Shown: positions 6,259-44,845, numbered from the stretch's first letter. The stretch: DNA of 64,000 nt from Thermomicrobiales bacterium (GCA_020853615.1 JADYYO010000342.1:3172-67171), one strand, 5' to 3'. The notes: generated by a model not told the origin, from the sequence alone. Program-made: numbers and translations.

Positions 6259-6262
6259 GCTG

Positions 6263-6901: not shown

Positions 6902-6909
6902 GGACGAGC

Positions 6910-7245: not shown

Positions 7246-7261
7246 GGCCGAGCTCCTTCGA

Positions 7262-8160: not shown

Positions 8161-8288
8161 GGGCTGGTAGGCAGGGGCGCGGGCCGCTCGAGGCACCCGG
8201 CGACGATGAAGCGTTGGCAGCTCTCCCGTTCTGTTCAACGACCCGGCGTCGGCCGGTTGCCTCCAGGGGCCCCCGCGGGGGTCACGGT

Positions 8289-8978: not shown

Positions 8979-9009
8979 GGCGAAGGCCTTGCTCGCGCGA
9001 ACGCGCGGG

Positions 9010-9648
9010 CTACAGGTTGACGATCTTGTAGCCGGGGAAGCCGACCCAGAGGACGCCGGCGGTGGTGGCCACCTCCTCGCCGCCGCCCGGGTTGAAGACG
9101 ATCCGCTCAAAGGTCGGCGTGAACCGCACGACCGAGTTGGGCGCGAACAGCGTCGGCACCGGCAGCGGAATCGCGTTGTCGGGCCGAGACAGGATCGGCG
9201 CGACCGGCGCGTTCTGGAACTCGCGCTGCGAGCCACCGTCGGTCACCTCGTAGCTGATGTCGATCAGGTCGGTGCCGAGCTCCTGGGTCGGCAGCGGCCA
9301 CGTCGAGACCGGCCGCCACGCGCCGAAGTTGGTCGCGTTCTCGGGCTCGGTCGGACGCCAGATCGCCATCGGGTAGTGCGTCGCGATGAACGGGCCGTCC
9401 TGCGAGATCTCGAAGCGCATCGCGGTGGCGCGCGTGCCGGCCACGTCATCGTTGAACGGGAGCACGGCGCAGAGCGTGTAGAAGATCCGCCGGCCCGGGA
9501 TCGAGTCGATCTGCTGCGTGATCGACTGGGGCTGGTTCTGCAGCGCGCTCACCAGCTCGTTGTAGCGAGCGGCGATCTGCGCCATCTGCTGCTGCTGCAC
9601 CTTCTGGCGCTGCAGCAACTGGCGGACGACAACTTCGACGTTGGCCAT
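9010..9648 (-). CDS. beta-rich virion protein, capsid candidate (N-terminal Gln-rich coiled coil)
   Basis: Start MANVEVVVRQLL (cat 9646-9648); strand-patterned sequence, no TM segment; adjacent to a second beta-rich protein. Confidence 0.75.
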   Translation of the reverse strand: MANVEVVVRQLLQRQKVQQQQMAQIAARYNELVSALQNQPQSITQQIDSIPGRRIFYTLCAVLPFNDDVAGTRATAMRFEISQDGPFIATHYPMAIWRPTEPENATNFGAWRPVSTWPLPTQELGTDLIDISYEVTDGGSQREFQNAPVAPILSRPDNAIPLPVPTLFAPNSVVRFTPTFERIVFNPGGGEEVATTAGVLWVGFPGYKIVNL

Positions 9649-9793
9649 CGGACACTCCCGGCAGGGGTTGGCAGGCGAACCTGCCCTCCGCACCGACACG
9701 GTGCGGGTGGGCGCCTGGACGCATCAGCGGCCGAGGCGCGGAAGATGGACGCCCGGGGCGTCGGCCAGATCGACCGACGCCCGGGCGGGTGCG

Positions 9794-10369
9794 CTACTGC
9801 GCGTCGCGGGTCTGCAGGCCGTCGATCAGGTACATGATGACCATCTGATCGTCGGTGGCCGCGCCGTTGATCAGGTCGAGCACGTTGGTCGTCCCGACCG
9901 CGAAGAACTCGGCGTTGACCGAGATGTTCTGGCGGACCGGGATGATGATCGGACGCGCCAGCTTGAGGATGGCGGTCTGGCTCGGGTCGCCGTTGTTGAG
10001 CACCGAGTCGGCGGCGTCGAAGCCCGCGATGCCACCGCCGGCCGGGAAGTACCAGCACGGCGCGACGAACTGCGGCTTGTCGCCGAGCGTCAGCGTGAAG
10101 TACAGCTGCGACACCGTCTGCAGGTACAGATCGCGGTGGTTGGTGCCGTCGAAGTACAGCCACGCGCGGAGCGCGAGGATGACGTAGGTCTGGTCGCTCG
10201 CGAGCTGACCGGGGACCTGGAGGTTGGTGCGGTCCAGCTGGCCGACGTTCGCGTTGCCGAACAGGCGGGTGCTGGGACCGACCGCGGGGGTGGGCGAGCC
10301 GGTGCTGCGGACCAGAGTGTCCCAGACGGGCTGGTGGCGGCGCTCGCGGACTCCGTGCAGGCGGGGCAT
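9794..10369 (-). CDS. beta-rich virion protein, capsid candidate
   Basis: Start MPRLHGVRERR (cat 10367-10369); alternating-hydrophobic strands (YVILALRAWLYFDG, LYFTLTLGDK, IIIPVRQNISVNAEFFAV). Confidence 0.75.
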   Translation of the reverse strand: MPRLHGVRERRHQPVWDTLVRSTGSPTPAVGPSTRLFGNANVGQLDRTNLQVPGQLASDQTYVILALRAWLYFDGTNHRDLYLQTVSQLYFTLTLGDKPQFVAPCWYFPAGGGIAGFDAADSVLNNGDPSQTAILKLARPIIIPVRQNISVNAEFFAVGTTNVLDLINGAATDDQMVIMYLIDGLQTRDAQ

Positions 10370-10527
10370 GACATTCTCCTCGTGACGAATCGGTGCCCGG
10401 GATGGGCGGGTGGCCCCGCACATGCGGGGCCGGTGGGCGAGGTGTCGACGAGGAGGAGCGAAGAAAGGCCGGGCGGAGCGTCACCGGCCGGCGCGCCCGG
10501 AGGCGCCGGCGGTCCGGGGGCGGCTGA

Positions 10528-11862
10528 TCAGCCGCCGAAGCCGCCGGCGAAGACGCCGCCGTACAGGTTGCGCGGGTTGTCGTAGGCGGCCGACGCGTTC
10601 GGGATCGCCTTGGTGAACGAGCGGGCCGGCACCGCCTCGAGCGCGGGCATCTGCTTGATCGGCGCGAGCAGGTTGCCCTGGCGCTGGCCGCCCAGGTACG
10701 CGTCGGCGCCCAGCTCCTCCTCGAGCCCCAGCTCCTCCTCGACCTGGCCCAGCTCCTCCTCGGCACCGACCTCGAGGTAGTCGCCCACCTCGACGTAGTC
10801 GCCCATCGTGATGTTGTCGTCGATCGGCGGCGCGCCGTTGACGCCGACGTAGTCGCCCAGGCCGTCCGCGTAGACGTCGCCCAGGCCGATCTTGGCCTTC
10901 ACCGAGGCCGGCGCGATCGCCGACAGCGCGTTGTCGAGCAGGTTGAGGCCGAGGCCGATCATCACCGAGGTGCGGTACTTGGCCAGCTTGGCCACCTTCT
11001 TGGTGGCGAAGTGACCGATCACGCCCAGGCCGATCGCCATCGCGGTGCCCTGCCACTGGCTCGGGAGCCGGTTGATGAGCGGCACGCGCGAGGCCAGCGT
11101 GTACGACGCCGCGCGGGCGCCGTACAGCGAGACCGCGATCGGCACCACCTGGGTCAGCGTGTCCATGAACACGCCGGCCGGGTTCGAGCGCATCCGGTAG
11201 CGCCGGATCGTCGCGCGGCCGAGCGCGGTCTTGTAGCGGTTGCGGATCGCCCGGCGGGCGCGGAGGATGCTCCGCTGCGTCGACGGCCGCGGGTTGCGGC
11301 GGTAGCGCCGGCGGCGGGCGTGGCTGCGCATCCGGCGCGCCGGGTTCCGCCGGCGGCGCCGGCGGGGCGCGTGGCTCGCGGCGGCGTTGTGGCGCCGGCG
11401 GCGGCGCCGGCGGGGCGCCGGGTTGGCGCGGCCCTCGGTCATCGCGACGGCGCGGCGGCGCCGGGCGCGGGTGCGGCGCGCGCGCCGGGCGTGCGGGCGG
11501 GTGCCGGGGCGGACGCGCCGGCGCGCCCGGGTGCGGGTCCGGCTGCGCCGGCGGCGCCGCTTCGGGGCGGACGTGCGGGCGGTCGCGCGCCGCTTGCGGC
11601 GGCGGCTGGTGGACGGGCGGCGCCGAGAGGCACCACGGCGCCGCTTCGTCTTGGCTCGCTTGCGGGCGTGCGCGAGAGCGGCAGCGCCATGGAGCTTCTT
11701 CCGGGCCATGTTCTTCTTCCTCCGAGGACGAGTGGGTGCGGCCGAGGTGGCCGCGCGCGACCGGCGGCCGTACCGGCCCCAGTCCTTGTGCGAGGTGGAC
11801 GCGCGCTTACCCCGTGCGTGCTTCCGGGGAGCCGGGGCGGGGTTCACGTAGGTGAGCGGCAT
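10528..11862 (-). CDS. protamine-like Arg-rich / membrane / acidic tripartite protein
   Basis: Full ORF. G/C third positions and AAG Lys codons persist through the Arg-rich half. Alternative start at 11709 (MARKKLHG, AGGAAG upstream). Confidence 0.75.
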   Translation of the reverse strand: MPLTYVNPAPAPRKHARGKRASTSHKDWGRYGRRSRAATSAAPTRPRRKKNMARKKLHGAAALAHARKRAKTKRRRGASRRRPSTSRRRKRRATARTSAPKRRRRRSRTRTRARRRVRPGTRPHARRARRTRARRRRAVAMTEGRANPAPRRRRRRRHNAAASHAPRRRRRRNPARRMRSHARRRRYRRNPRPSTQRSILRARRAIRNRYKTALGRATIRRYRMRSNPAGVFMDTLTQVVPIAVSLYGARAASYTLASRVPLINRLPSQWQGTAMAIGLGVIGHFATKKVAKLAKYRTSVMIGLGLNLLDNALSAIAPASVKAKIGLGDVYADGLGDYVGVNGAPPIDDNITMGDYVEVGDYLEVGAEEELGQVEEELGLEEELGADAYLGGQRQGNLLAPIKQMPALEAVPARSFTKAIPNASAAYDNPRNLYGGVFAGGFGG

Positions 11863-11921
11863 GGTTCTCTCTGGACCTCGAGACGCGGGTTGTCACCCGC
11901 ATCGACCGTGGGAGAGAACAC
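11863..11921 (-). promoter_or_regulatory. structured 5' leader (nested hairpins) abutting the start of the Arg-rich gene
   Basis: GTTCTCTC (11864-11871) pairs with GAGAGAAC (11912-11919); inner hairpin GCGGGT-TGTC-ACCCGC (11885-11900). Confidence 0.4.
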
Positions 11922-11981
11922 GGAGCGCGACGATGCACTGGGATGTTGATCTGATCTCCCCCAGCGTGTCAAGGCCCGCGC

Positions 11982-12215
11982 TCACGATGCGGCCAACTGC
12001 TGGATGCTGTCGCCCAGCGAGATGACCAGGCTGTCGCCGTCGTCGGCGACGTCGAGCACGATCCCGTCGTCGACGCTGTCGACCTCGGCGGCCAGCTCCT
12101 CGGCAGCCGCGCGCAGCTTGGCAGATTCGTCCATGCTCTGGCGACAGGCCTCGTCGTCGTCGTCGTAGACCGGCACGGCGGCCGGCGGTGGCGGCGGTGG
12201 CGGCAGCGGGATCAT
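11982..12215 (-). CDS. small highly acidic protein
   Basis: 77 aa with P7 then a D/E-rich sequence (VYDDDDEACRQSMDES...DVADDGDS); ATGA overlap with the upstream gene. Confidence 0.6.
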   Translation of the reverse strand: MIPLPPPPPPPAAVPVYDDDDEACRQSMDESAKLRAAAEELAAEVDSVDDGIVLDVADDGDSLVISLGDSIQQLAAS

Positions 12216-12616
12216 TCAGTGCCTCCTCGGATCTTGCGGACCAGCCCCTTGAAGGCCTCGAGCATCGCCTGCGACTGGCCCTGGAGCGCGTCGGCCTGCT
12301 GGCGCGACTGGGTGATGTGGCGCTCGAGCAGCTCCTGGTAGCGCTTGTCGTGCTTGTCCTGCTGATCGGCCAGGAGCTTGAGCGTCTCCTGGTGGCCGTC
12401 GCGAACCGCCTTGACCATCTGCGCGTGGAGATCGGCGATCTGGCGATCGTGCGCCTCTTGGCCCTTGGCCTGCGACGTCCGGTCCTCGCGCCGCTCGGCC
12501 AGGAACTGGCGCAGCCCGATGATGAGCGCCGCCAGCGCCAGCGCCGCGACGACGCCGATCGCGCCGTAGCGCTCCGCCCAGGACTCGGTCCCGGGCGGTG
12601 GAATCGTTGGGTTCAT
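12212..12616 (-). CDS. N-terminal TM + coiled-coil protein
   Basis: Start MNPTIPPPGTESW (cat 12614-12616); helix GAIGVVAALALAALIIGL followed by a Q/E/K-rich coiled coil. Confidence 0.7.
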   Translation of the reverse strand: MNPTIPPPGTESWAERYGAIGVVAALALAALIIGLRQFLAERREDRTSQAKGQEAHDRQIADLHAQMVKAVRDGHQETLKLLADQQDKHDKRYQELLERHITQSRQQADALQGQSQAMLEAFKGLVRKIRGGTE

Positions 12617-12669
12617 GGTGGCACGATCGCATGGCGTTAGGACGAGCGCGATGACCGTAGAAGGATGAG

Positions 12670-13158
12670 CTAGTGGACGATGCCGCGCCGCTCGACGCCG
12701 AGCCGGCCGCCCCAGATCAGCGCGAGCAGCCGGCGCTTGCTCTGGATGATCAGGAGCGCCTTGCCGGACGGCGTCGTGTAGAGCTCGGGCAGCGGCTCGG
12801 TGGCGCCGACCTTGCGAACGCGGCCGCCCTCGTCGCGGTACGCGAACCCCAGCGACTTGCCGAGCCACGTGAAGCTCTGCTGGCGCTGCAGCCAGCTCGG
12901 CACCGCCACCAGGTCGGCGTCGGCCGGCGGCCGCGCCTCGACGCGGTGGGCGATCACGCCGGCGCCGTGCTCGTGGATGTAGTCGATCCAGCCCTCGTCC
13001 TGGCCCGTCGTCGGGTTGAGCTTGTCCGAGCGGTAGAGCACGTGCTCGGCCGTGCCCAGCCGGATCACCTCCCGCGGGATCACCAGGTCGGCGTGGAAGT
13101 CCCCCTCGCCGCGCCAGTCGCGGGAGTGGAACGTCTTGAACATCCGGCGCGCGCTCAT
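12670..13158 (-). CDS. hypothetical protein (162 aa)
   Basis: Start MSARRMFKTFHSRDW (cat 13156-13158, ATGA overlap); only the tail of tracked 755-aa ORF 12670-14937 is genuine. Confidence 0.75.
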   Translation of the reverse strand: MSARRMFKTFHSRDWRGEGDFHADLVIPREVIRLGTAEHVLYRSDKLNPTTGQDEGWIDYIHEHGAGVIAHRVEARPPADADLVAVPSWLQRQQSFTWLGKSLGFAYRDEGGRVRKVGATEPLPELYTTPSGKALLIIQSKRRLLALIWGGRLGVERRGIVH

Positions 13159-13951
13159 CGGCGCCGCCGCCGGCGCCGGGCCGGGTTCGAGGTGGGCGCG
13201 GGCTTCTTGGGCTTCGCGAGGTAGTAGGCGGCGACGCCGAGCGCGCCCCACTTCGTCCACGTCCAGATCTTGCTGACCGTGTCGGGGATCGCGAGCACGG
13301 CCTCGCCGACCTCGACGACGACGCCGACGACCGTCCGCACGATCGCCGCGAGCTTCATGCACGCCGCCGACGCCGCCTGGAACATCGAGACGATGAACGG
13401 CTTGATGCACTCGAAGTACGCGACGGCCGTGTACCCGTTGCTGGTCGTCGTCATGCTCTCGAGCACCCACCGCCGCAGGCCGGGCGCCTCGATCACGCGG
13501 ATGTTCTTCGCCTGGGCTTCCTTGATCGCGCTCGTGTACTCGAGCGACGCGTTCATCTTCTTGTAGATCAGATCGAGGCGCCCGTAGAGGAACGTGCGCG
13601 CGTCGGCGGCGGCGCCCCGCTTGATCGACGCATCGATCGCGGCCGAGGCCCCCTTCAAGTAGGCGAACGTGGCGTCGCGCAGGCGGATCACCTCGTCGAC
13701 CGAGAACGTGTCGGGCGGGCGCCACGTCGCCGCGAGCCGGTTGGTCTCGCTGTCCAGGACGGCCGTGGCCGCCTTGGCCTTCGCCATGCACGCCTCGTCG
13801 GACGGCGCGCCGAACAGCGCGTTCGCCAGATCCTTCCACGGGTCGGTGATGAACGACAGCAACCCGTCGGTGGGCGTCGCGGTCACGAGCCCGGCGTGGG
13901 CCGGGGCCGTGTAGCGACCGCGGCTGATCGGCAACGTGCGGCGGTAGATCA
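13155..13951 (-). CDS. tail-anchored membrane protein with NPARRRRRRR terminus
   Basis: Start MIYRRTLPISRG (ATGA overlap at 13949-13951); C-terminal hydrophobic segments; ends WGALGVAAYYLAKPKKPAPTSNPARRRRRRR. Confidence 0.75.
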
Positions 13952-14275
13952 TCGCGACTTCCCTCCGAGGAGCACCTTGGCGCCGACGACGCCGGCGGCC
14001 ACCAGGAGCCCGATCTTGACCAGGCCCAGGCCGCCGCCGTCGTCGCTCGCGCCGAGCGCGCCCGCGCGATCGATCGCGACGCGCCCCTGGGCGTGAACAC
14101 CCGTGCCGACGAACCGCGCGCCGGCCGGCAGCGGCCACGCCGCCTGCTCGACGGTCGATCCGAGCGCCCGCGCGCGCAGGTGCGTCGGCTTCGGGGCGTG
14201 CGCGCCGACGTCGTCGCCGGCGGCGTCGTAGTAGTCGAACTGCCGCTGGCCGGGGTTCCAGACCGAGTAGCGCAT
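13949..14275 (-). CDS. tail-anchored membrane protein
   Basis: MRYSVWNPGQRQFDYYD...; ends GLGLVKIGLLVAAGVVGAKVLLGGKSR. Confidence 0.65.
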   Translation of the reverse strand: MRYSVWNPGQRQFDYYDAAGDDVGAHAPKPTHLRARALGSTVEQAAWPLPAGARFVGTGVHAQGRVAIDRAGALGASDDGGGLGLVKIGLLVAAGVVGAKVLLGGKSR

Positions 14276-14279
14276 CGGC

Positions 14280-14804
14280 TTAGAAGACCCAGTGGACGTG
14301 GTAGTTGACGCGATCGCGCCTGCCCCGGCCCTTGTTGCGGCGGCGCGCGAGCAGCACGAGCGCCGCCAGCCCGACCGCGCCCACGACCAGCGCCTTCTTC
14401 TCGCTGTCGCTCAGGTCGTCGACGAACCCGGCCGGGGCCTGGAAGTTGCGATCGCGGAGCGGCGGGTACGGGAGCTGGTAGGGCGAGAGCCCGCTCTCGT
14501 ACAGGTCGCCGCCCGAGAGCTCGCGCGTCTCGGCGGCCCGCTGGCCGCCGGGCACGCCGCCGGGCCAGCCGTGCCACTGGAACGGGTACGACCGCGCCTG
14601 CGCCGCGAAGCGGTAGTACGCGGTCGAGCCGGGCGGCTGACGCCGCCCGTTCGCGAGGTTGATCGCCGTGCGGATGATCGGGCCGGGTGCCGCGATGCTC
14701 CCCAGCGCAGGACGCCCTGGCGCGCAGCACGCCATCACGTGAACGACGTTGGGCGTGCGGTGGCACGCACACGGGCAGTTGTTGTAAGCAGGCGGCAACG
14801 GCAC
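14280..14804 (-). CDS. Cys-rich protein with C-proximal TM and basic tail
   Basis: GTG start at 14804 preceded by GAGGAG + 7 nt (VPLPPAYNNCPCACH...); ...ALVVGAVGLAALVLLARRRNKGRGRR... Confidence 0.6.
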   Translation of the reverse strand: MPLPPAYNNCPCACHRTPNVVHVMACCAPGRPALGSIAAPGPIIRTAINLANGRRQPPGSTAYYRFAAQARSYPFQWHGWPGGVPGGQRAAETRELSGGDLYESGLSPYQLPYPPLRDRNFQAPAGFVDDLSDSEKKALVVGAVGLAALVLLARRRNKGRGRRDRVNYHVHWVF

Positions 14805-14815
14805 GGGTGTTCTCC

Positions 14816-15523
14816 TCAGCGGCGACGGGTCCGGCGGACGCGGGTGCGGCGCGTCGGCGCGCGGCGACGCTTGCCCTTCGCCGGCGGGATCGCGAACTTG
14901 AACAGCGCGAGCCCGGCGACGCCGAGCGCGGCCGCACCCAGCGGCGACTGGAAGCCGCTTGGCAGGTACGTCAGCGCCGACACCGACGCGCTGCTCTGGA
15001 TCACCGACGGCGGCGGGTGGACGACGCCGCCCGAGCTCGAGGGCTGGGACGGCTGGCTGCTGCGCGGATCGGCGACCACCGGGTAGTTCATCTCGGCGGC
15101 GACCTGCTGGATCCGCGCGACGATCAGGTCCGCGGCCTGCGCGATCGTGTCGCACGGCTGGCCGCGGATGTTGGCCCACTGCAGGCCCATCGCCTGGGCC
15201 TCGGGCGTGATCGCCTTGCTGCCCAGCCACGCCATCGCGTCGGCGACGGCGTTCACCGTCGCGGGCCCGATCCGGCCGTCGACGGCGATCAGCTTCTTGC
15301 CGGCCTTGCTCAAGACACGGTTGGTCTGGCGCTGCAGCTCCTTGAACGTCGCGAGCGTCGCGGCGTTGGTCGGCAGGCAGATCCCCTTGAGCGGCGAGCA
15401 CGAGCCTTGCCGGTTCGCGGTGCTGCACCAGTTCGCGGCCGCGATCGACCCCAGCTCGGTGGGCGGCGCCAGCGGCGGCTCGAGGCTCACCATGTGATAG
15501 GCCATGCGGGGGACGTAGGGCAT
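14816..15523 (-). CDS. peptidoglycan-binding-domain protein, tail-anchored
   Basis: PG_binding_1-like LQRQTNRVLSKAGKKLIAVDGRIGPATVNAV; AGGAG RBS; ends GVAGLALFKFAIPPAKGKRRRAPTRRTRVRRTRRR. Confidence 0.8.
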   Translation of the reverse strand: MPYVPRMAYHMVSLEPPLAPPTELGSIAAANWCSTANRQGSCSPLKGICLPTNAATLATFKELQRQTNRVLSKAGKKLIAVDGRIGPATVNAVADAMAWLGSKAITPEAQAMGLQWANIRGQPCDTIAQAADLIVARIQQVAAEMNYPVVADPRSSQPSQPSSSGGVVHPPPSVIQSSASVSALTYLPSGFQSPLGAAALGVAGLALFKFAIPPAKGKRRRAPTRRTRVRRTRRR

Positions 15524-15535
15524 CTGGAGCTCCTG

Positions 15536-16009
15536 CTAGGACCGCTTGCGGCCCACGAAGTAGTAGAACGCGGCGCCACCCGCCAGCCACGCGAGCGGGT
15601 TGGACGCCAGGCTGATCACCGGATCGAGGACGTCGCCGGTGGCGGTGGCTCGGGCGGGCGGAAGCGTGGCCTGCGGCGCGCGCGCGACGACCTTGCCGGC
15701 CATCACGTCGCCGTAGATCTGCACCCAGGTCTTGTCCATCCACCGCGGCCCGGCGTAGACGCGCGTCGCGTCCATCGTGGCGCGGCCCATCCAGCCGTCG
15801 ACCGGCACGTGGTGGCCGCGCGCGGCGAGCATGTTCTGCAGCCCCTGGACGATCGCCTGCGTGGCCTGCGCGTACGGGTCGCAGGTCCGCGGCAGGAAGT
15901 ACATGTACGGGATCGCCATCTGGGCCAGGTACTGACCGATCCCGGCGTTGAGCACCATCTCGCGGACGTTCCACTGGTGCCCGCCGATCTGCTGGACGAG
16001 TTGGGCCAT
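15536..16009 (-). CDS. peptidoglycan-binding-like protein, tail-anchored
   Basis: Start MAQLVQQIGGH (cat 16007-16009); LQNMLAARGHHVPVDGWMGRATMDA; ends NPLAWLAGGAAFYYFVGRKRS. Confidence 0.7.
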   Translation of the reverse strand: MAQLVQQIGGHQWNVREMVLNAGIGQYLAQMAIPYMYFLPRTCDPYAQATQAIVQGLQNMLAARGHHVPVDGWMGRATMDATRVYAGPRWMDKTWVQIYGDVMAGKVVARAPQATLPPARATATGDVLDPVISLASNPLAWLAGGAAFYYFVGRKRS

Positions 16010-16013
16010 GGGA

Positions 16014-17051
16014 TCACCGCTTCTTCGTGGCGACGTAGAGGAGCCCCAGCCCGCCGACGACGGCCGCGCCGACCGCGACCGGCTTGACCCAGGTCGCGCG
16101 GGCCGGCGGCGGCGGCGGCGGCGGCATCGCGGGGAGCGCCGCCGCAGCGGCGCCACCGCCGCCACCGCGGTTGCAGACGCCCGAGGCGACGCTCGCGCCG
16201 GCGGCGCCGGCCGGGCCACCGGCGGCGGTCGCGGCCAGCTGGCCCGCGCCGGAGGTGACGACCGAGCAGGCCAGCCCGCCCAGCGCCGAGATGCCGCGGG
16301 TGACGAAGTTGCCGACCGACGAGGCCGCGCTCGAGGCCGCGCCGGCGACCGCGCCGGCCGCCGACTTGACGCCCGAGCCGATCGCCTGGCCGGCGCGCTT
16401 GACCGCCGAGACGGGGTTCAGATCGCTCAGACCGAAGCCCAGGCTCTCGAGCGCGTGGCTGGTCGCCCGGGGCACGGCGTCCGGGTAGACGCCGAGCGCG
16501 AGCTGGCCCTGCCGGCTCACCGGCTGGCGCTGGCCGCGCTGCGCGCGCCGCCCGGCCTCGACGATCTCGCGCAGCATGCCCTCGGACATGCTGGTGGCGA
16601 TCGCCTGCTGGAGCGCGTCGCGCGGGCTCGCGCCCTGGCTGCGGAGCTGCGTCGCGCGCGCCTCGACGGTCCGCCAGAGCGAGCGATCGATCGCGTCGAA
16701 CATCGCCCGGAGCGCCGCCGTCCGGTGCTCCGACGGCACGCTCCTGATCGAGTGCATGATCCACGACGCCGCCTTCTGGCCGTAGCCGGCGATCGCGTCG
16801 CCCTTGGCCGCACGCTGGGGCGCCTGCGCGCCCAGCGTGTCGTCGCCGAGCGAGCCCAGGCCCGCGTCCTTGCGGTCCAGGAGCGTCGTCCCGGCGCGCT
16901 GCGCCTGGAACTCCGGCACCAGCTCGCTGATCGTGCCGCGGGGCAGCCACGCGGTCGTGAACGTCCCCCGGCCCGGCGGCTCCGCCATGACGTAGGCCGG
17001 GATCGCGTAGCCGGGATCCCACGCGGACGGAAGGTTGTAGAAGTTCGACAT
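16014..17051 (-). CDS. Gly/Ala-rich tail-anchored virion-module protein
   Basis: Start MSNFYNLPSAWDPG (cat 17049-17051); P8 tract then VKPVAVGAAVVGGLGLLYVATKKR. Confidence 0.7.
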   Translation of the reverse strand: MSNFYNLPSAWDPGYAIPAYVMAEPPGRGTFTTAWLPRGTISELVPEFQAQRAGTTLLDRKDAGLGSLGDDTLGAQAPQRAAKGDAIAGYGQKAASWIMHSIRSVPSEHRTAALRAMFDAIDRSLWRTVEARATQLRSQGASPRDALQQAIATSMSEGMLREIVEAGRRAQRGQRQPVSRQGQLALGVYPDAVPRATSHALESLGFGLSDLNPVSAVKRAGQAIGSGVKSAAGAVAGAASSAASSVGNFVTRGISALGGLACSVVTSGAGQLAATAAGGPAGAAGASVASGVCNRGGGGGAAAAALPAMPPPPPPPARATWVKPVAVGAAVVGGLGLLYVATKKR

Positions 17052-17070
17052 GCAGGGGCTCCTTCGGGGG

Positions 17071-17673
17071 TCAGGCGATCGGCCAGATATGGGCGGCACG
17101 CACGCGGGCGAGCATCTTGGCCGCGCCCTCGGCGGCGACCGGGTCGAGCACGATCCACTGGCCGGTCAGCGGCTCGCGGACGCGCACGAAGACGTGGCTG
17201 TACTGGCGCTGGCCGCGCACGAACGCGTCCCGGAACGCGACCGTCATGATCTGGACCTCGCGGCCCAGGATCAGCAGCAGCGCCACCAGCAGCGCCGTCA
17301 TGTCGTCGCAGTCGAGCGACGGCCGCCACCGGGCGTCGCCCGCCTCGGCGACCTGGCCGGTGCGCGCGATCTCGAGCAGCTGGGCGGTGTGCCGCTCGAG
17401 CCGCGCCAGCACTTCCGCCGGCGACCGGACGAGCTCGACCGACCGCGGGTCGTTCGCGTAGCGGCAGTTCGCCAGCACCCAGTAGTGGACCGCGCCGATC
17501 TCGGACAGGTAGTCCTTCGACGGCAGCCGCCCGACGATCTCCTCCGCCAGCTCGCGGAGCGCGTAGTTCAGCTGGGCCTTGACGGCCAGCCGGCGGATGT
17601 TGTCGACGGTGTGCGGCGCGCCGCGAAAGCGCTCCGTCGTGACCCGTCGGCTTGCATCGAACTGACCGCGCAA
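17071..17673 (-). CDS. transglutaminase-like cysteine protease fold protein
   Basis: Cys-His-Asp core pattern: LDCDDMTALLVALLLILG ... YSHVFVRV ... WIVLDPV. Start is probably TTG at 17673 (uncertain). Confidence 0.7.
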   Translation of the reverse strand: MRGQFDASRRVTTERFRGAPHTVDNIRRLAVKAQLNYALRELAEEIVGRLPSKDYLSEIGAVHYWVLANCRYANDPRSVELVRSPAEVLARLERHTAQLLEIARTGQVAEAGDARWRPSLDCDDMTALLVALLLILGREVQIMTVAFRDAFVRGQRQYSHVFVRVREPLTGQWIVLDPVAAEGAAKMLARVRAAHIWPIA

Positions 17674-17712
17674 CGCATGTTCGCTTCCCGGGAGAGGGAG
17701 GCCTGTAGCGTA

Positions 17713-19629
17713 TCAGGTCTGGGCGCGAAACAGTAGCTGCGCGACCTGGCGGATCCACGTGCGGCCGTGCTGCGTCACCAGCGGGCTGGACGGCTTCTCG
17801 GCCGCGACCGCCTGCAGGAAGCGATCGATCCCCACCTCCTTGATCCACTGCACCGTCGCCGGCGGGATGAGCTTCGCCGCCGACGTCGCCACCTGCTCGG
17901 GCTTCACGCCGCGTCCGAGCGCGTTCTCGAGGTACGCGACCGCCATCGCCACCTCCTTGGACTCCGGCGGCGGCGTCGCAGGCGCGGGACCGCCCTGGGC
18001 GGCGGGCGCGGCCAGCGCGGGCGCCGGGGTGGGGGTTGGTGCGGGCGCGCCGGCGGGCGCCGCCGCACCAGCACCAGCGGCGGGCGCGCTCGGCAGATCG
18101 CGCCGGCGGCGCTGGGCCAGCTGGGGCGCGGGCGCGGCCGGAGGCGTGCCACCGGCGCCGGGCTGCGCGATCTGCTGGCGCGCCCGCTGCTTGGTCGCCG
18201 CCAGCATCTGGCGGACCTGCGCTTCCTCGTAGGGGCCCTCGAACAAGGCCTCGCCGCGGTGGATGTACCACTTGCCGTCATCGGGGTTCTTGAACGGGCG
18301 GCCGATGGGCGGCAGCATCCGCGGCTGCGGGTGCGGCGCGGGGGCCGCCGCCGGCGGCGCGTCGTCGCCGGCATCGGCATCGCCGACGTCGCCATCGCCG
18401 CCGCCGGTGAGCCGCTCGACGATCTTGATCCCCACCTCGCTGTTGCCGACCGCGTCCAGCACCTGCGCGTACCACGGCTTGTTCTCGTCGCCGCCCCCGC
18501 CGCCGCCGGTGAGCGCGTCCATCTGTTCCTTGATGGTCGCCATCTCCTTGAGCAGCTCGACCGGGGTCTTGTCCTTCTTGTCGCGCAGCGCGCCGATCTC
18601 GCCCTTGCTCTCGGCGATCTGCGCCTGGAGCCGGGCCACCTCGCCCTTGAGCGACGCGATCTGCGTCTCGTAGGCGATCTTCAGCGCGGCGCTCTCGCCG
18701 GACTGGCTGCGCTCGACGTGCTTGAGCTCGCGCTCGTGCGCCTTCGTCAGATCGGCGTTGGTCCGCTCCATCTGCTTCTGGAGATCGGCCAGCGCGCGAT
18801 CGTGGCGGTCCTCGAGCCGCTTGACGTCCTGCGCGTGCCCCTCGCGGAGCTGGCGCAGTTCGGAGGCGTGGTTGTCGCGCAGCTGATCGAGGCGCTTCTC
18901 GTAGCGATCAGCCTGGGCCTGGAGCTTGGCGTTCTCGTCGTCGACGGCCTTCGCGAGCAGCTTGTCGCGGAACTCGTCGCGCGGCGGCTGGCGCGTCGTC
19001 GCCGCCAGTAGATCCTGCTGGAGCCGCTCGTTGGTCGTGCGCATCGCGGCCAGCTCGTCGCGGAGCGGCCGCATCAGCAGATCGATCTGCGCCAGGTCGC
19101 CGAGGCCGCCCTGCTGGCGCCCCGCGGCGATCTCGCGCTCGAGCCGGTCGGCGCGCTCGCGCTCCTTGTCGGCGAACTTCGTCGCGACGCCGATCGCCGT
19201 GGCCGAGACGTTCTCGTTCTCGATCGGAATCGCCGCCGCCGGCGCCGCCTCCGTCAACGGCCGTCCGTGCATCTTCGGCTCGCCCGCGAGCCGCAACTGG
19301 CGCGCCTTGCCGTACCGCCACCCGCCCGTGTCCTTGGGGAGTTGCAGTTGGAGCTGGAACGTCCCGCCGCCCCACATGTCGCGGATGTACTCCTCGAGAT
19401 CATCGGGGACATCCTCGATCGTCTCGAGCACGCCGCCGCAGTTCTCGCCGTTGCGCCCGGTCCGGGGCGCCTTGCGATCGACGCGCACCTTGCAGGCCAG
19501 GCCGTTCGTGTTGGCGTTGAACCACTCGGCTGTCGACAGATCGTCTTCGTCGCGATCGCGGCGCAGCGCGGCCGACTCGCGGCCCTTGGTCGGGCGCTCG
19601 TCCATCGTCTCGGCGTCGGGCGTCGACAT
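17713..19629 (-). CDS. long coiled-coil protein (scaffold-like?)
   Basis: 638 aa with a ~250-aa heptad-like E/R/K/L/Q region, Pro/Ala linkers and a globular C-terminus; TAGATG junction with the upstream gene. Confidence 0.8.
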   Translation of the reverse strand: MSTPDAETMDERPTKGRESAALRRDRDEDDLSTAEWFNANTNGLACKVRVDRKAPRTGRNGENCGGVLETIEDVPDDLEEYIRDMWGGGTFQLQLQLPKDTGGWRYGKARQLRLAGEPKMHGRPLTEAAPAAAIPIENENVSATAIGVATKFADKERERADRLEREIAAGRQQGGLGDLAQIDLLMRPLRDELAAMRTTNERLQQDLLAATTRQPPRDEFRDKLLAKAVDDENAKLQAQADRYEKRLDQLRDNHASELRQLREGHAQDVKRLEDRHDRALADLQKQMERTNADLTKAHERELKHVERSQSGESAALKIAYETQIASLKGEVARLQAQIAESKGEIGALRDKKDKTPVELLKEMATIKEQMDALTGGGGGGDENKPWYAQVLDAVGNSEVGIKIVERLTGGGDGDVGDADAGDDAPPAAAPAPHPQPRMLPPIGRPFKNPDDGKWYIHRGEALFEGPYEEAQVRQMLAATKQRARQQIAQPGAGGTPPAAPAPQLAQRRRRDLPSAPAAGAGAAAPAGAPAPTPTPAPALAAPAAQGGPAPATPPPESKEVAMAVAYLENALGRGVKPEQVATSAAKLIPPATVQWIKEVGIDRFLQAVAAEKPSSPLVTQHGRTWIRQVAQLLFRAQT

Positions 19630-20196
19630 CTAGCCCTCCTGCCCGGGCGTCGCGCCGCCACCCTCGACCGGATCGACGACGGGCTCGCCCTCAGCCGGCT
19701 CGGGGCCGGCGTCGTCGTCGGGTGCCTCGGGATCACCCTCGCCGTCGAGCGTCGGGATCGCCATCACGACGTCGCGCACCGCGCTCTCGGTCGCGCGGTA
19801 GGTCCGGATCGCGTTCTGGGCGCGCTTCCGGGTGGTCTGGTCCGCCGTCTTCACGGCGGCCTCGAGCAGCTGGCAGATCACCTTGCCCTGCTCGAAGACG
19901 GCCATGATCTGGCCGATCGTCTCCTCGTGCAGAAACTCGCTGTCCTCGGCGAGCGCGTCCAGTTCCTGGGCCAGCTCGGACACCTCCTGGACGACGTCCT
20001 CCTGGACGGCTTCGGCCACGGCCTCGACGAGCGGGTAGGCGTTCATCGCCAGCTCGCGCTTGAGCCACTCGAAGACGCTCTGGACCGTCGGGACGGTCTC
20101 GCCCTCGGCGAGCGTCGCCTCGAGCGGCGTGGCGAGGATGCGCTCGCGCGCGAGCGCGGCGTCGGTCTTGGTCTGCTGCAAACGGGTGACGGTCAT
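19630..20196 (-). CDS. acidic helical protein
   Basis: 188 aa, GGAG RBS 7 nt upstream, E/D-rich, ends DPEAPDDDAGPEPAEGEP. Confidence 0.75.
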   Translation of the reverse strand: MTVTRLQQTKTDAALARERILATPLEATLAEGETVPTVQSVFEWLKRELAMNAYPLVEAVAEAVQEDVVQEVSELAQELDALAEDSEFLHEETIGQIMAVFEQGKVICQLLEAAVKTADQTTRKRAQNAIRTYRATESAVRDVVMAIPTLDGEGDPEAPDDDAGPEPAEGEPVVDPVEGGGATPGQEG

Positions 20197-20208
20197 CGGG
20201 AGAGGCTC

Positions 20209-20892
20209 CTACGGGTTGACGACGAGATCGGGGTTGTTCTCGAGGAAGGTCTCGCGGCGCTTCTGGAGCTGGCGCAGCTCCTTCGGATCGCCGGGATCCC
20301 ACTGGTTGCACTCGTAGACCAGGGTCTCGGTGAGATCGGTCTCGCAGCCGGGCTGGCGCATGCACGTGCGGACGATCTGGCGCGGCGCCTTGACGGGCTT
20401 GCCATCGGGCAGCGGGACGACCTGGTTGCCCTCGCAGACCATGCACGGCACCCATCGCGGCGCCGGCTCGTCGATGACGTGGTGGTGCGCGCCCGCGTGA
20501 TTCGCCACCAGCCGGCACGGGATCTCGCGGTGGATGCCCTGGCTCGGGCGGTAGCCGCACGCCGCGTCGTCCGACGGGGCAAGATCGGGCGTCGCCATGA
20601 CCTGGCCGCGCCCCGCGCAGTTCGGGCACGGCGCCATGTCGCGCAACCCGTGGACCGGGTCGAAGGTCTGCGCCGGGTTGCCGATGTCCAGGTGGACCTT
20701 GAGCTCGCCGTAGTAGCGACACGGGCCCCGCAGGCAGATGAACGTCTGCGGCGTCGCCTCGGGCAGCGGCGCCGGCGCGCCCACGGTCCCGGCCGCGATG
20801 CCGCCGTCGGGCGCGATCGGCGGGAGCGGGGCGCTGTCGATGTTGGCGTAGACGTCGATCGGGCTCTTGTGGCGCGGGGGGAGAGTCGGCAC
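20209..20892 (-). CDS. Cys-rich protein, first gene of late operon
   Basis: GTG at 20892 (VPTLPPRHKSPIDVY...). Several CxxC-type pairs (CPNCAGRG, CMVCEG). The upstream part of tracked ORF 20209-21231 is low-GC3 noncoding. Confidence 0.6.
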   Translation of the reverse strand: MPTLPPRHKSPIDVYANIDSAPLPPIAPDGGIAAGTVGAPAPLPEATPQTFICLRGPCRYYGELKVHLDIGNPAQTFDPVHGLRDMAPCPNCAGRGQVMATPDLAPSDDAACGYRPSQGIHREIPCRLVANHAGAHHHVIDEPAPRWVPCMVCEGNQVVPLPDGKPVKAPRQIVRTCMRQPGCETDLTETLVYECNQWDPGDPKELRQLQKRRETFLENNPDLVVNP

Positions 20893-21464
20893 GGGTGGTG
20901 ACACTACGCGATCCACCGGGCGGGTTCTAGCGCCGTTCGTGCGGCGTTTTCGCGAGCCCCGATCGCGCACGGGCGCAGCTTTCGATCGCCACCAGGCCGA
21001 GACCGTTGTGGCGTTTGGGTGCCGCTCGAGCGCGCGGGCAACGCCAAACCGCCGCGCAACTGCGCTCGGGGCCCGGTTTGGCGTTAGCGGATCCTGTTGC
21101 CAAAACGCGGATCGCGGTGCCGTTCCGGAGCGATCGATGGCGCGCAAGCGCGATCTGCGGCCTGGTACCGCGGTGGCCCCGGTCCCGCGCTGGACCGGGC
21201 GCCGGATGGCCCCGGTGCGATGCGATGCCACACCAGCCTACAGTGTAGGTGTTGCGGCCCGCAACATGGTTAAAATCCCCCGCCAACCTGTCAGGTTCCC
21301 GGACACTTTCCGGTGGATTTTCACCACGTGCCCGGTCAAGTACCCGGAAACACTGCGCCTAGAACCCGGCATGCCGGATGCTTTGACCGGGAATGCGGCC
21401 GGAATCCTCCGGCGCCCCCGGCTGGACAACCGGGGCCCGTCAACCCTCACCGACAGGATACCCG
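20893..21464. promoter_or_regulatory. 572-bp divergent control region between late (-) and early (+) operons
   Basis: Lowest-GC stretch. TTTGGCG/CGCCAAA inverted repeats (21010-21108). Palindromes CCTACAgTGTAGG (21237-21249) and GTTGCGgccCGCAAC (21251-21265). TAAAAT box at 21271-21276. CCGGA-N4/5-TCCGG palindromes at 21299-21313 and 21399-21412. Confidence 0.6.
20901..20906 (-). promoter_or_regulatory. -10-like TAGTGT, 8 nt upstream of GTG 20892 (leaderless late-operon promoter candidate)
   Basis: Minus strand reads gatcgcgTAGTGTcaccacccGTG. Confidence 0.35.
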
Positions 21465-31197: not shown

Positions 31198-31204
31198 GGC
31201 GGCC

Positions 31205-33058: not shown

Positions 33059-33679
33059 TTGCTGCCCACGACCTACGATCCGCTGTTCCGCCGCTACGCG
33101 GGTTCGATCCCGGTCGCCTACCTGCGCGCGCTCACGCAGCGCGAGAGCGGCTTCAACCCCCGCGCCAACGCCGGCAAGGCGGCCGCGCAGGGCCTGCTGC
33201 AGATCACGACCGTGGCGCGCGACGCCTTCAACCGCGCCCAGGGCACGAGCTACACGCGGGACGACACGCTCGATCCCGAGGTGAACATCCGGATCGCGAC
33301 CAACCTGCTCCAGCGCATCATCGCCAGCTACCGCGCGCACCCGAGCGCCAACATGCGCGAGGACTGGAGCAACCCGGCGTTCGTCCAACTGCTGACCGCC
33401 GGCTGGAACGCCGGCTACTCCGAGGGCGGCGGCGTCGGCAAGGTCGCGCGCTACCTCGAGCAGCGCAACCTGCCGGTCACGCCCGCCACGGTCTACCAGC
33501 ACGCCGGCGCGGCCGGCGCGGTCGCGTTCTTGTCCGATCCGGCCCGGGCCCGCTGGCACCAGTCGGTGGCCGAGCTCTACCTGGCGCAGCCCGATCGCGC
33601 CTCCGCCGCCACGCCGGCGCTGGGCCTGCTGGCCATGGCGCTGCTCGCGTGGGGCGGCTACACCCTGCTGACGAGGTGA
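33059..33679 (+). CDS. lytic transglycosylase (SLT domain) with C-terminal TM anchor; endolysin candidate
   Basis: LTQRESGFNPRANAGKAAAQGLLQIT (catalytic-Glu motif ES-GLLQI); TTG start; ends LGLLAMALLAWGGYTLLTR. Confidence 0.75.
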   Translation: MLPTTYDPLFRRYAGSIPVAYLRALTQRESGFNPRANAGKAAAQGLLQITTVARDAFNRAQGTSYTRDDTLDPEVNIRIATNLLQRIIASYRAHPSANMREDWSNPAFVQLLTAGWNAGYSEGGGVGKVARYLEQRNLPVTPATVYQHAGAAGAVAFLSDPARARWHQSVAELYLAQPDRASAATPALGLLAMALLAWGGYTLLTR

Positions 33680-39319: not shown

Positions 39320-39937
39320 ATGGCGCTCGACCTCGGCTTCCGGAAGCCCGTCCCCGACAACGTCTTTGCCGAGGTGATGAGCGGGTGGGGCCGGCCGCGC
39401 GCCGGCGGCAAGGAGCACTCGGGGCTCGACATCCTCCTGCCGATCGGCAAGCCGGTCGTGGCGATGGCGGACGGGCAGGTGATCCGCGTCCAGGCCACCG
39501 ACGACGGCGGCTCGGCCGGCATCTTCCTCGTGATCCGCCACCCGTCGGGGATCTCGAGCCGCTACATCCACCTGGGCCGGGCCGACGTGCGGCTCAACCA
39601 GCAGGTCGCCAAGGGCCAGGTGATCGGCGCGTCGGGCAACACCGCGATCAAGAACAGCCCGCCGCACATGCACGTCGACATCAAGGTGCCGGCGGCGCTC
39701 TTGCCGCAGATCGAGGCGGCCGCCGGCAAGCCGCCGGGCGGGTGGCACCCGCTGGTCAACCCCTGGGGCTACGGCGTGCCGGCCGAGCCGTGGATCCCGG
39801 TCGACCGCTACTCGGCCCGGACGCTCGAGGACGCGCAGCGCAACGGGATCCCGCTCTACCGGGGCGGGGCCGCGAAGGCGGTCGGGCTCGCCGCGCTGCT
39901 GCTCTTGGGCTGGGGGCTCTACCGCCTGACGCGCTAG
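39320..39937 (+). CDS. M23/LytM metallopeptidase with C-terminal TM anchor
   Basis: HSGLDILLPIGKPVVAMADGQV, RYIHLGRADVRLNQQVAKGQVIGASGNT, PPHMHVDI; ends AVGLAALLLLGWGLYRLTR. Confidence 0.8.
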   Translation: MALDLGFRKPVPDNVFAEVMSGWGRPRAGGKEHSGLDILLPIGKPVVAMADGQVIRVQATDDGGSAGIFLVIRHPSGISSRYIHLGRADVRLNQQVAKGQVIGASGNTAIKNSPPHMHVDIKVPAALLPQIEAAAGKPPGGWHPLVNPWGYGVPAEPWIPVDRYSARTLEDAQRNGIPLYRGGAAKAVGLAALLLLGWGLYRLTR

Positions 39938-40223: not shown

Positions 40224-40571
40224 ATGTACGCGTGGCCCGACGATGCCCCCCGGATCAGCCCCACCCCCGCGCTCGAGGCGCACTACCGCGCGGCGATCGC
40301 CGCGTCGGTCGCGTGGCTCGAGGCCAACGCCGCGCCGGCGCCGACGTGGAGCGGCGGCCACCACGCCAGCCCGGCGGATCCCGCCGCGCAGGCGCACCAC
40401 GCCGCGATCGTGGCGGCGATCGCGGCGCAGCCCGGGCCGACGCCGCAGGGCCTCGCGCTCCGGACGATCGTCACCGTCGCGGCGCGCTGCGCGTTCGTCG
40501 CGCGCGCCGGCGGCTTTGGCGAGGCGGGCTGGGCCAAGGTGCGGGCGACCTTCCAGAGCCCGCGGTCGTAG
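40224..40571 (+). CDS. hypothetical Ala-rich protein (115 aa)
   Basis: MYAWPDDAPRISPTPALEAHYRAAIAASVAWLEAN... Confidence 0.6.
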   Translation: MYAWPDDAPRISPTPALEAHYRAAIAASVAWLEANAAPAPTWSGGHHASPADPAAQAHHAAIVAAIAAQPGPTPQGLALRTIVTVAARCAFVARAGGFGEAGWAKVRATFQSPRS

Positions 40572-40573
40572 CC

Positions 40574-41188
40574 GTGCCGATCCGCGGCCAGCGCGTCGTG
40601 ATCGTCGGGGACAGCCTGTCGGCCGGGCCGCACACGCCCGGCCAGGTGCTGGCCGATCGGCTCGCCGCCGCCGGCGCCGACGTTCGCGTGAACGCGCGCG
40701 TCGGGCGCAGCGCCAACAACTTCTACGGCCGCGAGGACTGGCGGGGCCAGCTGCAGCAGATCGCGGCGACGCACCCCGACGTCGCGATCGTCGTGCTCGG
40801 CACCAACGACATCGGCCTGTCGATGACCGTCGACGCCCAGCGCATGACGCAGCTCCGCGACGCGCTCGCCGGCGCCGGCGCCGACGTCTACGCGTTCGGG
40901 CCGCCGACGTTCCCGCCCGGCACCCGGCTGGTCGCCGGCCAGCCCCAGGTCGTGCGGATGATGCGCGACGTGTTCGGCGGTGATCGCTTCATCGACCTGA
41001 CGCCGCTGACCGCCGACCTGGTGACGAGCCAGCACCGGACCGGAGACCAGGTTCACTTCACCGCCGCCGGCGGCGACGTCGCCGGGCAGCGCATGGCCGA
41101 CGCGTTCCTGCGGGCCTCGAGCGCGCCGGGCGGCGGCTGGCCGGTCGCGGTCGCGCTGCTCGTGGCCGGCTGGTTCCTGCTGCGGTAG
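40574..41188 (+). CDS. SGNH/GDSL hydrolase (esterase) with C-terminal TM anchor
   Basis: GTG start; VVIVGDSLSAG (block I), VLGTNDIG (block III), GDQVHFT (block V DxxH); ends GGWPVAVALLVAGWFLLR. Confidence 0.75.
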   Translation: MPIRGQRVVIVGDSLSAGPHTPGQVLADRLAAAGADVRVNARVGRSANNFYGREDWRGQLQQIAATHPDVAIVVLGTNDIGLSMTVDAQRMTQLRDALAGAGADVYAFGPPTFPPGTRLVAGQPQVVRMMRDVFGGDRFIDLTPLTADLVTSQHRTGDQVHFTAAGGDVAGQRMADAFLRASSAPGGGWPVAVALLVAGWFLLR

Positions 41189-44833: not shown

Positions 44834-44845
44834 GTCCGAAAACAC

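Follow-up and report, generated by a model that had tools for sequence, protein, structure and literature searches.

A conserved gene module of a transglutaminase-fold enzyme and tail-anchored proteins, possibly directed at the cell wall, in an uncultured and probably tailless bacterial virus

Phages that lack a tail and contain a membrane have barely been characterised, although they are thought to be abundant, and PRD1 is the main example for which passage through the cell wall is understood in detail. The locus analysed here raises the question of whether an uncultured virus of this kind encodes its own membrane-anchored device for dealing with the wall and, if so, which proteins would form it. 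The locus spans positions 14816-17673 of a stretch of DNA of 64,000 nucleotides, the whole of which is referred to here as the window, and consists of four co-directional genes on the minus strand, gpD, gpC, gpB and gpA. The products of these genes, probably together with gpH108, constitute a conserved module at the head of a putative structural operon; that this module is anchored in a membrane, directed at the wall and used at entry is a proposal for which we regard the case as evenly balanced. As the G+C content of the window is ~72%, genes were assigned via third-position GC and homologues; the true start of gpB is the ATG at 16009, which gives a protein of 157 amino acids (aa). The genes of the locus and its direct surroundings are as follows.

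17071..17673, minus strand: gpD, 200 aa, TTG start, predicted transglutaminase-fold cysteine enzyme
16014..17051, minus strand: gpC, 345 aa, ATG at 17051 with GAAGGAG ahead of it, tail-anchored
15536..16009, minus strand: gpB, 157 aa, tail-anchored, with the peptidoglycan (PG)-binding-like motif LQNMLAARGHHVPVDGWMGRAT
14816..15523, minus strand: gpA, 235 aa, tail-anchored, with the PG-binding-like motif LQRQTNRVLSKAGKKLIAVDGRIGPAT
13949..14275, minus strand: gpH108, 108 aa, tail-anchored, candidate membrane anchor for gpD
17713..19629, minus strand: coiled-coil protein, 638 aa, with a Pro/Ala-rich region, directly upstream of gpD

The structural model of gpD predicts a transglutaminase/papain-like fold with a conserved Cys-His-Asp triad. 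The AlphaFold2 (AF2) model has a predicted local distance difference test (pLDDT) value of 86.9 and a predicted template modelling score of 0.84, and its best Foldseek matches in the PDB are 3isr (E=5e-4) and 3kd4 (E=7e-4), both putative transglutaminase-like cysteine proteases. These are followed by arylamine N-acetyltransferase (NAT), Rad4/XPC, TgpA, PNGase, vasohibin, TG2 and FXIII, and the matches belong exclusively to the transglutaminase superfamily. A fold search was needed because the gpD profile returned only chance TBP matches (E about 1) when compared with PDB sequences. In Pfam, gpD itself scores 22.0 bits against Transglut_core (PF01841; E=2.1e-4), 1 bit short of the cut-off of 23, and many orthologues that are 57-70% identical to it carry precomputed PF01841 matches that pass this cut-off. 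A protein database search gave 463 gpD homologues of ~185 aa, many of them with a precomputed PF01841 match, and a hidden Markov model (HMM) search of 1.84 billion representatives yielded 289 clusters at E<=1e-10. The residues Cys122 (in DCDD), His160 and Asp177 (in LDPVAA) are invariant in 35 aligned sequences. The first-pass annotation had recognised a transglutaminase/papain-like C...H...D core in the strings LDCDDMTALL, YSHVFVRV and WIVLDPV; these strings are indeed encoded in gpD, the others that it quoted are likewise present on the minus strand of the locus, and the triad, the model and the fold matches all bear this assignment out. Its description of a 200-aa protein adjacent to the PG-binding-like genes was right about the length, but the neighbourhood is not strict, given that gpC lies in between. 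Neither a membrane segment nor a signal peptide is present in gpD. It is probably an active Cys-His-Asp enzyme.

Four gpD homologues (P0164, P0165, P0168 and P0156) contain inteins of ~150-350 aa directly before the catalytic cysteine, which is the +1 residue of the junction ...AD/CFPEG...TVSN/CDEAAL... (slashes mark the junctions); the P0165 intein has a weak Pfam match to a Hint module. Inteins favour such sites in essential proteins, and insertion exactly at the catalytic cysteine marks this residue as functionally central.

A search of 50,697 phage records gave a single match, gp34 of the Salisaeta phage SSIP-1 (tblastn with gpD, E=1e-3), an icosahedral (T=49) phage with a 44 kb genome, an internal membrane and two major capsid proteins. 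The relationship is evident from hhalign (probability 99.1%) and from Foldseek, where gpD matches the BFVD entry I1ZBG7 (304 aa, taken as gp34) with E=7e-8. The SSIP-1 protein passes the Pfam cut-off for Transglut_core with 29.6 bits and has the three catalytic residues in the same order (ADCDG..., YDHVYV, WHQLDP). Its gene, like that of gpD, lies directly after a coiled-coil gene (gp33) at the start of a late/structural block, and is followed by genes for tail-anchored proteins. It is annotated as a structural protein, a status that rests on the GenBank annotation. SSIP-1 gp34 differs from the soluble gpD in its length of 304 aa and in ending in a membrane segment of its own, and the identity between the two is ~26%; moreover, PG-binding tail-anchored neighbours like gpA and gpB are not evident in SSIP-1, whose 44 kb genome compares with ~70-90 kb for the relatives of the window.

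As judged from their sequences, gpA and gpB are tail-anchored paralogues. In gpA, a membrane segment at residues 194-212 is followed by a basic poly-Arg tail of 12 charges, while gpB ends in ...PLAWLAGGAAFYYFVGRKRS, a weaker hydrophobic stretch followed by RKRS, which falls under the hydropathy threshold of 1.5 and was judged by eye; with this proviso for gpB, the tail-anchored pair of the first-pass annotation stands, and the pattern is conserved across homologues. The two families align in hhalign with a probability of 92% (E=7e-7) over LQ..L...G...VDG.xG..T..A, represented by VDGRIGPATVNAV in gpA and VDGWMGRATMDA in gpB. Each protein has one copy of this PG-binding-like motif, LQ...VDGxxGxxT, and not the "PG_binding_1-like repeats" of the first-pass annotation. 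Residues Q64, D82, G83, G86 and T89 are invariant in gpA, gpB and their database homologues (18 sequences); in a wider set of 33 members Q64 alone is invariant, with G83 and T89 conserved in at least 90%. The core DG..G..T is no rarer than chance in the six-frame translation (4 observed versus 2.6 expected from shuffling), whereas the extended pattern LQ-x(8-18)-DG..G..T occurs twice in the window, in gpA and gpB only, versus 0.03 expected.

The Pfam matches of both proteins are all below threshold: gpA matches PG_binding_3 (E=1.3e-3, 19.3 bits) and PG_binding_1 (E=0.22, 12.2 bits), and gpB does so with E=6.1e-3 (17.2 bits) and E=0.16 (12.6 bits), respectively, the gathering cut-offs being 24.6 bits for PG_binding_3 (PF09374) and 23 bits for PG_binding_1 (PF01471). 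Among the 33 gpA/gpB family members, six match PG_binding_3 and two match PG_binding_1 at E<=0.01 (best E=7.4e-4), no other Pfam family is found, and the gpB homologue P0138 has a precomputed PF09374 match. The gpA profile finds 1lbu (E=0.046) and 6v3z at the top of the PDB sequences, and the joint family profile again ranks PG-binding domains first, with weak scores (6v3z, E=0.0099; 7rum, 0.062; SltB3, 0.1; 4xxt); these weak matches (6v3z, 7rum, 5anz, 4xxt and 1lbu) span E=0.01-0.4. In gp31, the endolysin of SSIP-1, hhalign aligns the PG_binding_3 part to gpA with a probability of 47%. Known PF01471/PF09374 domains, such as the N-terminal domain of 1lbu and those of the GH108 endolysins 6v3z and SSIP-1 gp31, have the pattern LQ..L(N)...G....VDG.iG..T..A in common with gpA and gpB, across a first helix, a loop and a second helix; about half of the domain model is matched, below the cut-offs. 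Beyond this part, the gpA domain continues as a longer helical bundle, and AF2 models gpA with five bundled helices (pLDDT 85-92 for residues 30-180). We read the motif as a real, conserved but divergent relative of the PG-binding helix-loop-helix, and not as a demonstrated member of the family. Between its helical domain and its anchor, gpA has an invariant linear motif, DP..S.PS.P...G.VVHPP...I (residues 152-175), which is missing from gpB and could be an interaction or substrate site.

Fusion proteins among the relatives connect the enzyme with wall binding and with membrane anchoring. Out of the top 150 representative gpD relatives, 47 are at least 250 aa long, and roughly 20 of these 47 end in a membrane segment with a short polar or basic tail. 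Five of the long proteins (P0255, P0275, P0279, P0236 and P0261; 700-880 aa) consist of an N-terminal gpD-like domain, which scores 45-59 bits against PF01841 and has the same catalytic residues, one or two FQ..G...DG.WG..T motifs each, and a C-terminal membrane segment. Their PG_binding_1/PG_binding_3 scores are at the Pfam threshold or just above it, and the profile of the motif segment matches, in the PDB, only PG-binding domains of wall enzymes, namely the L,D-transpeptidase 4lpq (E=3.8e-5), 1lbu (E=8.8e-4), YcbB, SleB and phiKZ gp144. The catalytic domain of P0255 matches SSIP-1 gp34 with E=7e-15, and P0255 occupies the position of gpD in a compact version of the operon, with the order gpE-like, fusion protein, tail-anchored protein, gp162-like, gp444-like, gp209-like and an M23 peptidase with a membrane segment. 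When the regions of the long fusions outside the catalytic domain were compared with gpA, gpB and gpC by HMM and hhalign, nothing significant emerged beyond the short DG motif; the fusions thus show a linkage of functions, and not orthology to gpA, gpB or gpC.

A second type of fusion concerns gpH108. Its HMM matches 16 representative proteins (E=5e-16 to 1e-4), of which 14 are 277-322 aa long and contain the match at about residues 170-300, downstream of a transglutaminase domain; most of the 16 fusions end in a membrane segment. As these proteins carry the gpH108-like domain on the C-terminal side of their transglutaminase domain, gpH108 is a candidate for a detached anchor, and the comparison suggests that it serves gpD in this role in the lineage of the window. 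Considered together, the fusions favour a membrane-anchored, wall-directed device over a maturation protease, the alternative offered by the first-pass annotation, because a maturation protease would not be expected to join wall-binding modules.

The gene order around the locus is conserved. Iterative HMM searches show that the order gp340, gp188, coiled-coil gene, gpD, gpC, gpB, gpA, (gpJ), gpH108, gpI265, gp162, gp444, gp209, gp229 is kept in ~25 long loci. The coiled-coil gene is upstream of gpD in every long locus, gpC always lies between gpD and gpB in the relatives, the gpB family is present in 28 loci, gpH108 is syntenic in 22, and gpB and gpA are fused in one locus (L021) and in P0131. 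The protein gpC has a conserved N-terminal motif and a helical domain, a Gly/Ala/Pro-rich linker, and a membrane segment at residues 324-342 that is followed by KKR; it matched no Pfam or PHROG family. The 638-aa coiled-coil protein, for which Pfam and PHROG gave only weak matches of the coiled-coil type, resembles SSIP-1 gp33 in position and architecture, and is a possible scaffold or tape-measure-like partner.

A hydropathy scan identified at least six further tail-anchored proteins in the operon besides gpA, gpB and gpC. Within ~4844-17051 on the minus strand, these at least nine proteins are gpC, gpB, gpA, 14280-14735, 13949-14275, 13155-13952, 7262-7720, 7822-8433 (whose anchor was judged by eye from the translation) and 4844-5260. 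Most of them have Arg/Lys-rich C-terminal tails, which might contact packaged DNA. The distal part of the operon includes the following genes.

12670-13158, minus strand: gp162, 162 aa
10528-11862, minus strand: gp444, 444 aa, with an Arg-rich N-terminal part
9794-10423, minus strand: gp209, 209 aa, candidate major capsid protein
9010-9699, minus strand: gp229, 229 aa, candidate major capsid protein

The best-conserved proteins of the operon are gp209 and gp229. For gp209, the identity to the L005 copy is 94% in the alignment and 99% over the region aligned by BLASTP, and 57-79% to the other copies. In size and arrangement both resemble gp45 and gp46, the capsid proteins of SSIP-1, and on this analogy they are candidates for the major capsid proteins. 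Their profiles matched neither PDB sequences nor a known family. In 20 loci, and also in L065, the compact relative, these two genes are directly preceded by gp444, the first ~190 residues of which are extremely Arg-rich with protamine-like runs (RRRRRRR), while its C-terminal half is hydrophobic and conserved. In one relative (L003, 16072-18021) the gp162 homologue makes up the C-terminal end of a protein of 649 aa that has a Mg-chelatase-type AAA+ ATPase in its N-terminal part, and in the other long loci it sits within a much longer open reading frame; in the window and in L005 the ATPase is encoded by a separate 265-aa gene (25037-25834, plus strand), on the opposite strand to gp162. This ATPase might serve, in an unconventional way, in packaging or assembly.

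What kind of element carries these genes can be approached from its distribution. A metagenome scan gave 55 loci and a genome scan two. The long relatives cluster at ~70-92 kb, and their sources are soil, rhizosphere, groundwater and lake sediment. The locus is carried by two of 185,579 species-representative genomes, both of them metagenome-assembled genomes (MAGs; contigs of 73 and 89 kb) labelled Myxococcales and Peribacteria, and one gpD homologue in the protein database is from a Kofleriaceae MAG. A scan of IMG/VR with the single gpD sequence returned nothing, and an alignment-based scan retrieved six related uncultivated virus genomes (UViGs) of 75-86 kb, which are listed there as viral genomes. 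Positions 12000-21300 of the window had no megablast match among the phage records, and our literature searches returned no description of this virus group. Pfam and PHROG scans of ~50 window proteins (large predicted genes) found no terminase, portal, HK97 capsid or tail families, and a search of the window for tRNA genes was likewise negative. A tailed-phage tail module at 33-40 kb was considered and dropped, as the 978-aa protein encoded there had no tape-measure match. The window is probably part of a ~70-90 kb genome of an uncultured, tailless, membrane-containing bacterial virus, distantly related to SSIP-1, with a Gram-negative, high-GC host that may belong to the Myxococcota. Outside bacterial viruses, gp13 of Geoglobus acetivorans pleomorphic virus 1 (BK065156.1), a hypothetical protein of a membrane-enveloped archaeal pleolipovirus, is similar to the transglutaminase domains of P0255 (E=1e-5) and SSIP-1 gp34 (E=1e-3), a sequence similarity which hints that the transglutaminase fold recurs in membrane-containing prokaryotic viruses.

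Hhalign comparisons of the other module proteins with those of SSIP-1 (the coiled-coil protein with gp33; gp209 and gp229 with gp45 and gp46; gp444 with gp41 and gp44) gave nothing convincing. Since the likeness of gp209 and gp229 to the SSIP-1 capsid proteins is one without sequence similarity, "virion operon", as the first-pass annotation called it, is well motivated as a deduction, and what can be stated directly is that the operon is conserved and rich in tail-anchored proteins.

Outside the locus, the window encodes several enzymes of the wall or envelope that are tethered to a membrane, as well as lysis, integration and DNA-modification genes.

33059..33679, plus strand: tail-anchored SLT lytic transglycosylase (Pfam SLT, E=3e-13; C-terminus ...LGLLAMALLAWGGYTLLTR), with PHROG endolysin/transglycosylase matches
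39320..39937, plus strand: tail-anchored M23 peptidase (Pfam Peptidase_M23, E=6.8e-22; C-terminus ...AVGLAALLLLGWGLYRLTR)
40232..41188, plus strand: tail-anchored GDSL/SGNH acylhydrolase (Pfam Lipase_GDSL_2, E=1.4e-15; C-terminus ...GGGWPVAVALLVAGWFLLR)
31196-31771: holin, Holin_LLH-type
41189-42118: soluble protein with PG_binding_1 and 3D domains, likely endolysin
43976-44845: tyrosine integrase
29053-29853: ParB-like protein
57904-58581: RusA resolvase
48299-49888, plus strand: predicted C5-cytosine DNA methyltransferase, read from its FSCAGG, PPC and QxRxR motifs
49885-50790, plus strand: predicted Dam-like N6-adenine DNA methyltransferase, read from its DPPY motif

The GDSL/SGNH protein may be a peptidoglycan O-acetylesterase. 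An M23 peptidase with a membrane segment is also encoded in the structural operon of the relative L065. The holin, the PG_binding_1 and 3D protein, the integrase, ParB and RusA suggest a temperate lifestyle with a separate lysis system.

How might the module work? It would sit on the viral lipid membrane. In the producing cell, tail-anchoring would keep the soluble domains in the cytoplasm and away from the wall; only on contact of the viral membrane with a new host would they come to be exposed. At infection, with that membrane laid open, gpD would be held against the murein by the wall-binding domains, where it would cleave or transamidate peptide or amide bonds of the wall, and the tail-anchored SLT, M23 and GDSL enzymes would work alongside it to open a passage for the genome. 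Both a PRD1-like tube and a PM2-like fusion are possible models. That the module is located in the virion, that it targets peptidoglycan, what chemistry it performs, how it is oriented in the membrane and that it acts at entry are all features that we infer.

Several observations weigh against this proposal. Neither gpA nor gpB reaches a Pfam gathering score, and their matches cover ~27-35 residues of models of 57-76 residues; profile searches confirm the enzyme, in the form of its orthologues and of SSIP-1 gp34, but not its supposed wall-binding partners. The same division is seen with Foldseek, where gpD leads to the transglutaminase superfamily, but the gpA model finds no PG-binding structure in the PDB (best E=0.2), and for this reason we refrain from assigning such a fold to gpA. 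The profile-profile comparison of the motif of the fusion proteins with gpA/gpB is also weak (probability 21.5%, E=1e-3). Some relatives keep gpD while lacking a recognisable gpA or gpB (L032, 9956-12236; L060, 2-2980); in these, gpD is 43% identical and is followed by several tail-anchored proteins, none of them with LQ...DG..G..T. Not every member of the virus group, then, has the PG-binding-like partners, and within the module it is the enzyme that is more fundamental. With SLT and M23 enzymes already available from the window, a further wall hydrolase would not be strictly required. The membrane topology is ambiguous, given how basic the C-terminal tails are, and neither hhalign nor profile searches of PDB sequences bore out a capsid identity of gp209 and gp229. 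Moreover, the virus group is known from sequence and not from particles, and we know of no bacterial transglutaminase-core member that hydrolyses murein.

Among the other explanations, it is rather unlikely, in our estimate, that gpD is a packaged maturation or assembly protease that processes the coiled-coil protein or other precursors in the manner of adenovirus adenain, with gpA and gpB being unrelated membrane proteins. Such a role would account for the succession of a coiled-coil gene and a transglutaminase gene both here and in SSIP-1 (gp33, gp34), where similarity is otherwise undetectable, and for the annotation of gp34 but not gp33 as structural, as would be expected of a scaffold that is removed; it would also agree with the fact that bacterial transglutaminase-like proteins are mostly predicted proteases and that the nearest structures, 3isr and 3kd4, are putative cysteine proteases. 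The fusion of the domain to PG_binding_1-type motifs and a membrane anchor would make little sense for a scaffold protease, however; no homology is detectable between the 638-aa protein and gp33, and the N-terminus of gp209, in which conservation begins at Met19, has no conserved cleavage motif or propeptide. A role in lysis appears improbable. PG binding combined with catalysis is the classical architecture of an endolysin, and gpA has a weak PHROG endolysin match (E=0.054), which would fit a membrane-tethered complex that is released or activated by the holin and acts in egress. Yet the genes head the structural operon, ~10 kb from the holin and in the opposite direction, the window encodes a separate soluble PG_binding_1 and 3D protein, the SSIP-1 homologue is annotated as a particle protein in a phage that has its own GH108 endolysin (gp31), and tail-anchor topology would hold the soluble domains off the wall of the producing cell.

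The fold and triad of gpD are also those of true transglutaminases, and gpD might cross-link virion proteins, or staple the virion or a delivery structure to the meso-diaminopimelate (mDAP) amines of murein. The association with wall-binding modules fits an amine acceptor in the wall, and the invariant Pro/Ser-rich motif of gpA could be a substrate; no feature of the gpD sequence tells a transferase from a hydrolase, however, and prokaryotic members of the superfamily are mostly thought to be hydrolases, so that we hold this for a poor prospect. Equally small is the chance we give to its wider form, an undescribed, globally distributed lineage of 70-90 kb, membrane-containing and tailless phages that infect bacteria of soil and groundwater, in which a true transamidase couples the membrane or apparatus to the diaminopimelate of the wall, or cross-links virion proteins; if true, covalent stapling in phage entry or assembly would have no known precedent. 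It is very unlikely, finally, that the locus is non-viral and belongs to a cell-envelope or conjugation-type apparatus that remodels the wall for channel assembly on a large mobile element. This would be in line with the absence of detected capsid, portal and terminase families from the window, and with the occurrence of SLT, M23, ParB and integrase genes on conjugative elements as well. It is opposed by the homology to an SSIP-1 protein annotated as structural, by the phage holin, by the six 75-86 kb relatives listed as viral in IMG/VR and the tight clustering of sizes at 71-92 kb, by the lack of matches to a relaxase or a type IV secretion ATPase, and by the presence of the locus in only 2 of 185,579 species-representative genomes, both MAGs.

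The proposed wall-directed entry module can be compared with several known systems. Virion-associated peptidoglycan hydrolases of membrane-containing phages include PRD1 P7 and Bam35 gp26/gp30, and P7 is a lytic transglycosylase without separate PG-binding partners. The first-pass annotation had likened the locus to P7. The fusions do favour a wall-directed membrane device, and the likeness extends to a wall-degrading activity on the internal membrane or vertex apparatus of a tailless phage that is used at entry, but P7 is not papain-like, Pfam finds no SLT domain in gpA, gpB, gpC or gpD, and the analogue in fold, which fits the comparison better, is the tail-anchored SLT protein at 33059-33679. 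Cysteine proteases packaged in icosahedral virions, some with internal membranes, are exemplified by adenain, African swine fever virus pS273R and poxvirus I7. These belong to clan CE, with the order His-Asp/Glu-Cys, a different fold and no association with wall binding, and they are not homologous to gpD. The best structural matches to gpD (3isr, 3kd4 and TgpA, 6g49) share its core fold and triad; they are cellular proteins, with TM-scores of 0.43-0.46 and identities of 10-15%. A biochemical precedent is provided by PeiW and PeiP (MEROPS C71, PF12386) of Methanothermobacter viruses, which, like gpD, are virus-encoded Cys-His-Asp enzymes of the papain-like cluster, and which cut an isopeptide bond of the cell wall and are combined with wall-binding modules (PMC10318531). 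They differ from gpD in belonging to another Pfam family, in their archaeal pseudomurein substrate, and in being soluble and thought to act in release; gpD had no match to PF12386 in the Pfam scan.

In summary, that membrane-containing phages carry wall enzymes on their virions was known already, whereas a transglutaminase fold in a wall-entry role and a split or fused tail-anchored architecture with PG-binding-type modules would be new, and the group of 70-90 kb viruses is apparently undescribed. The gene for gpD is a conserved marker by which such viruses can be found in metagenomes, and the inteins at the catalytic cysteine and the recurrent fusions point to residues and partners of interest. 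If the proposal is true, the tools by which a large and widespread group of viruses opens the wall are tail-anchored proteins carried on the viral membrane, the transglutaminase-like fold would be newly tied to phage entry, and a testable function would be at hand for gp34, an uncharacterised structural protein of the cultured phage SSIP-1.

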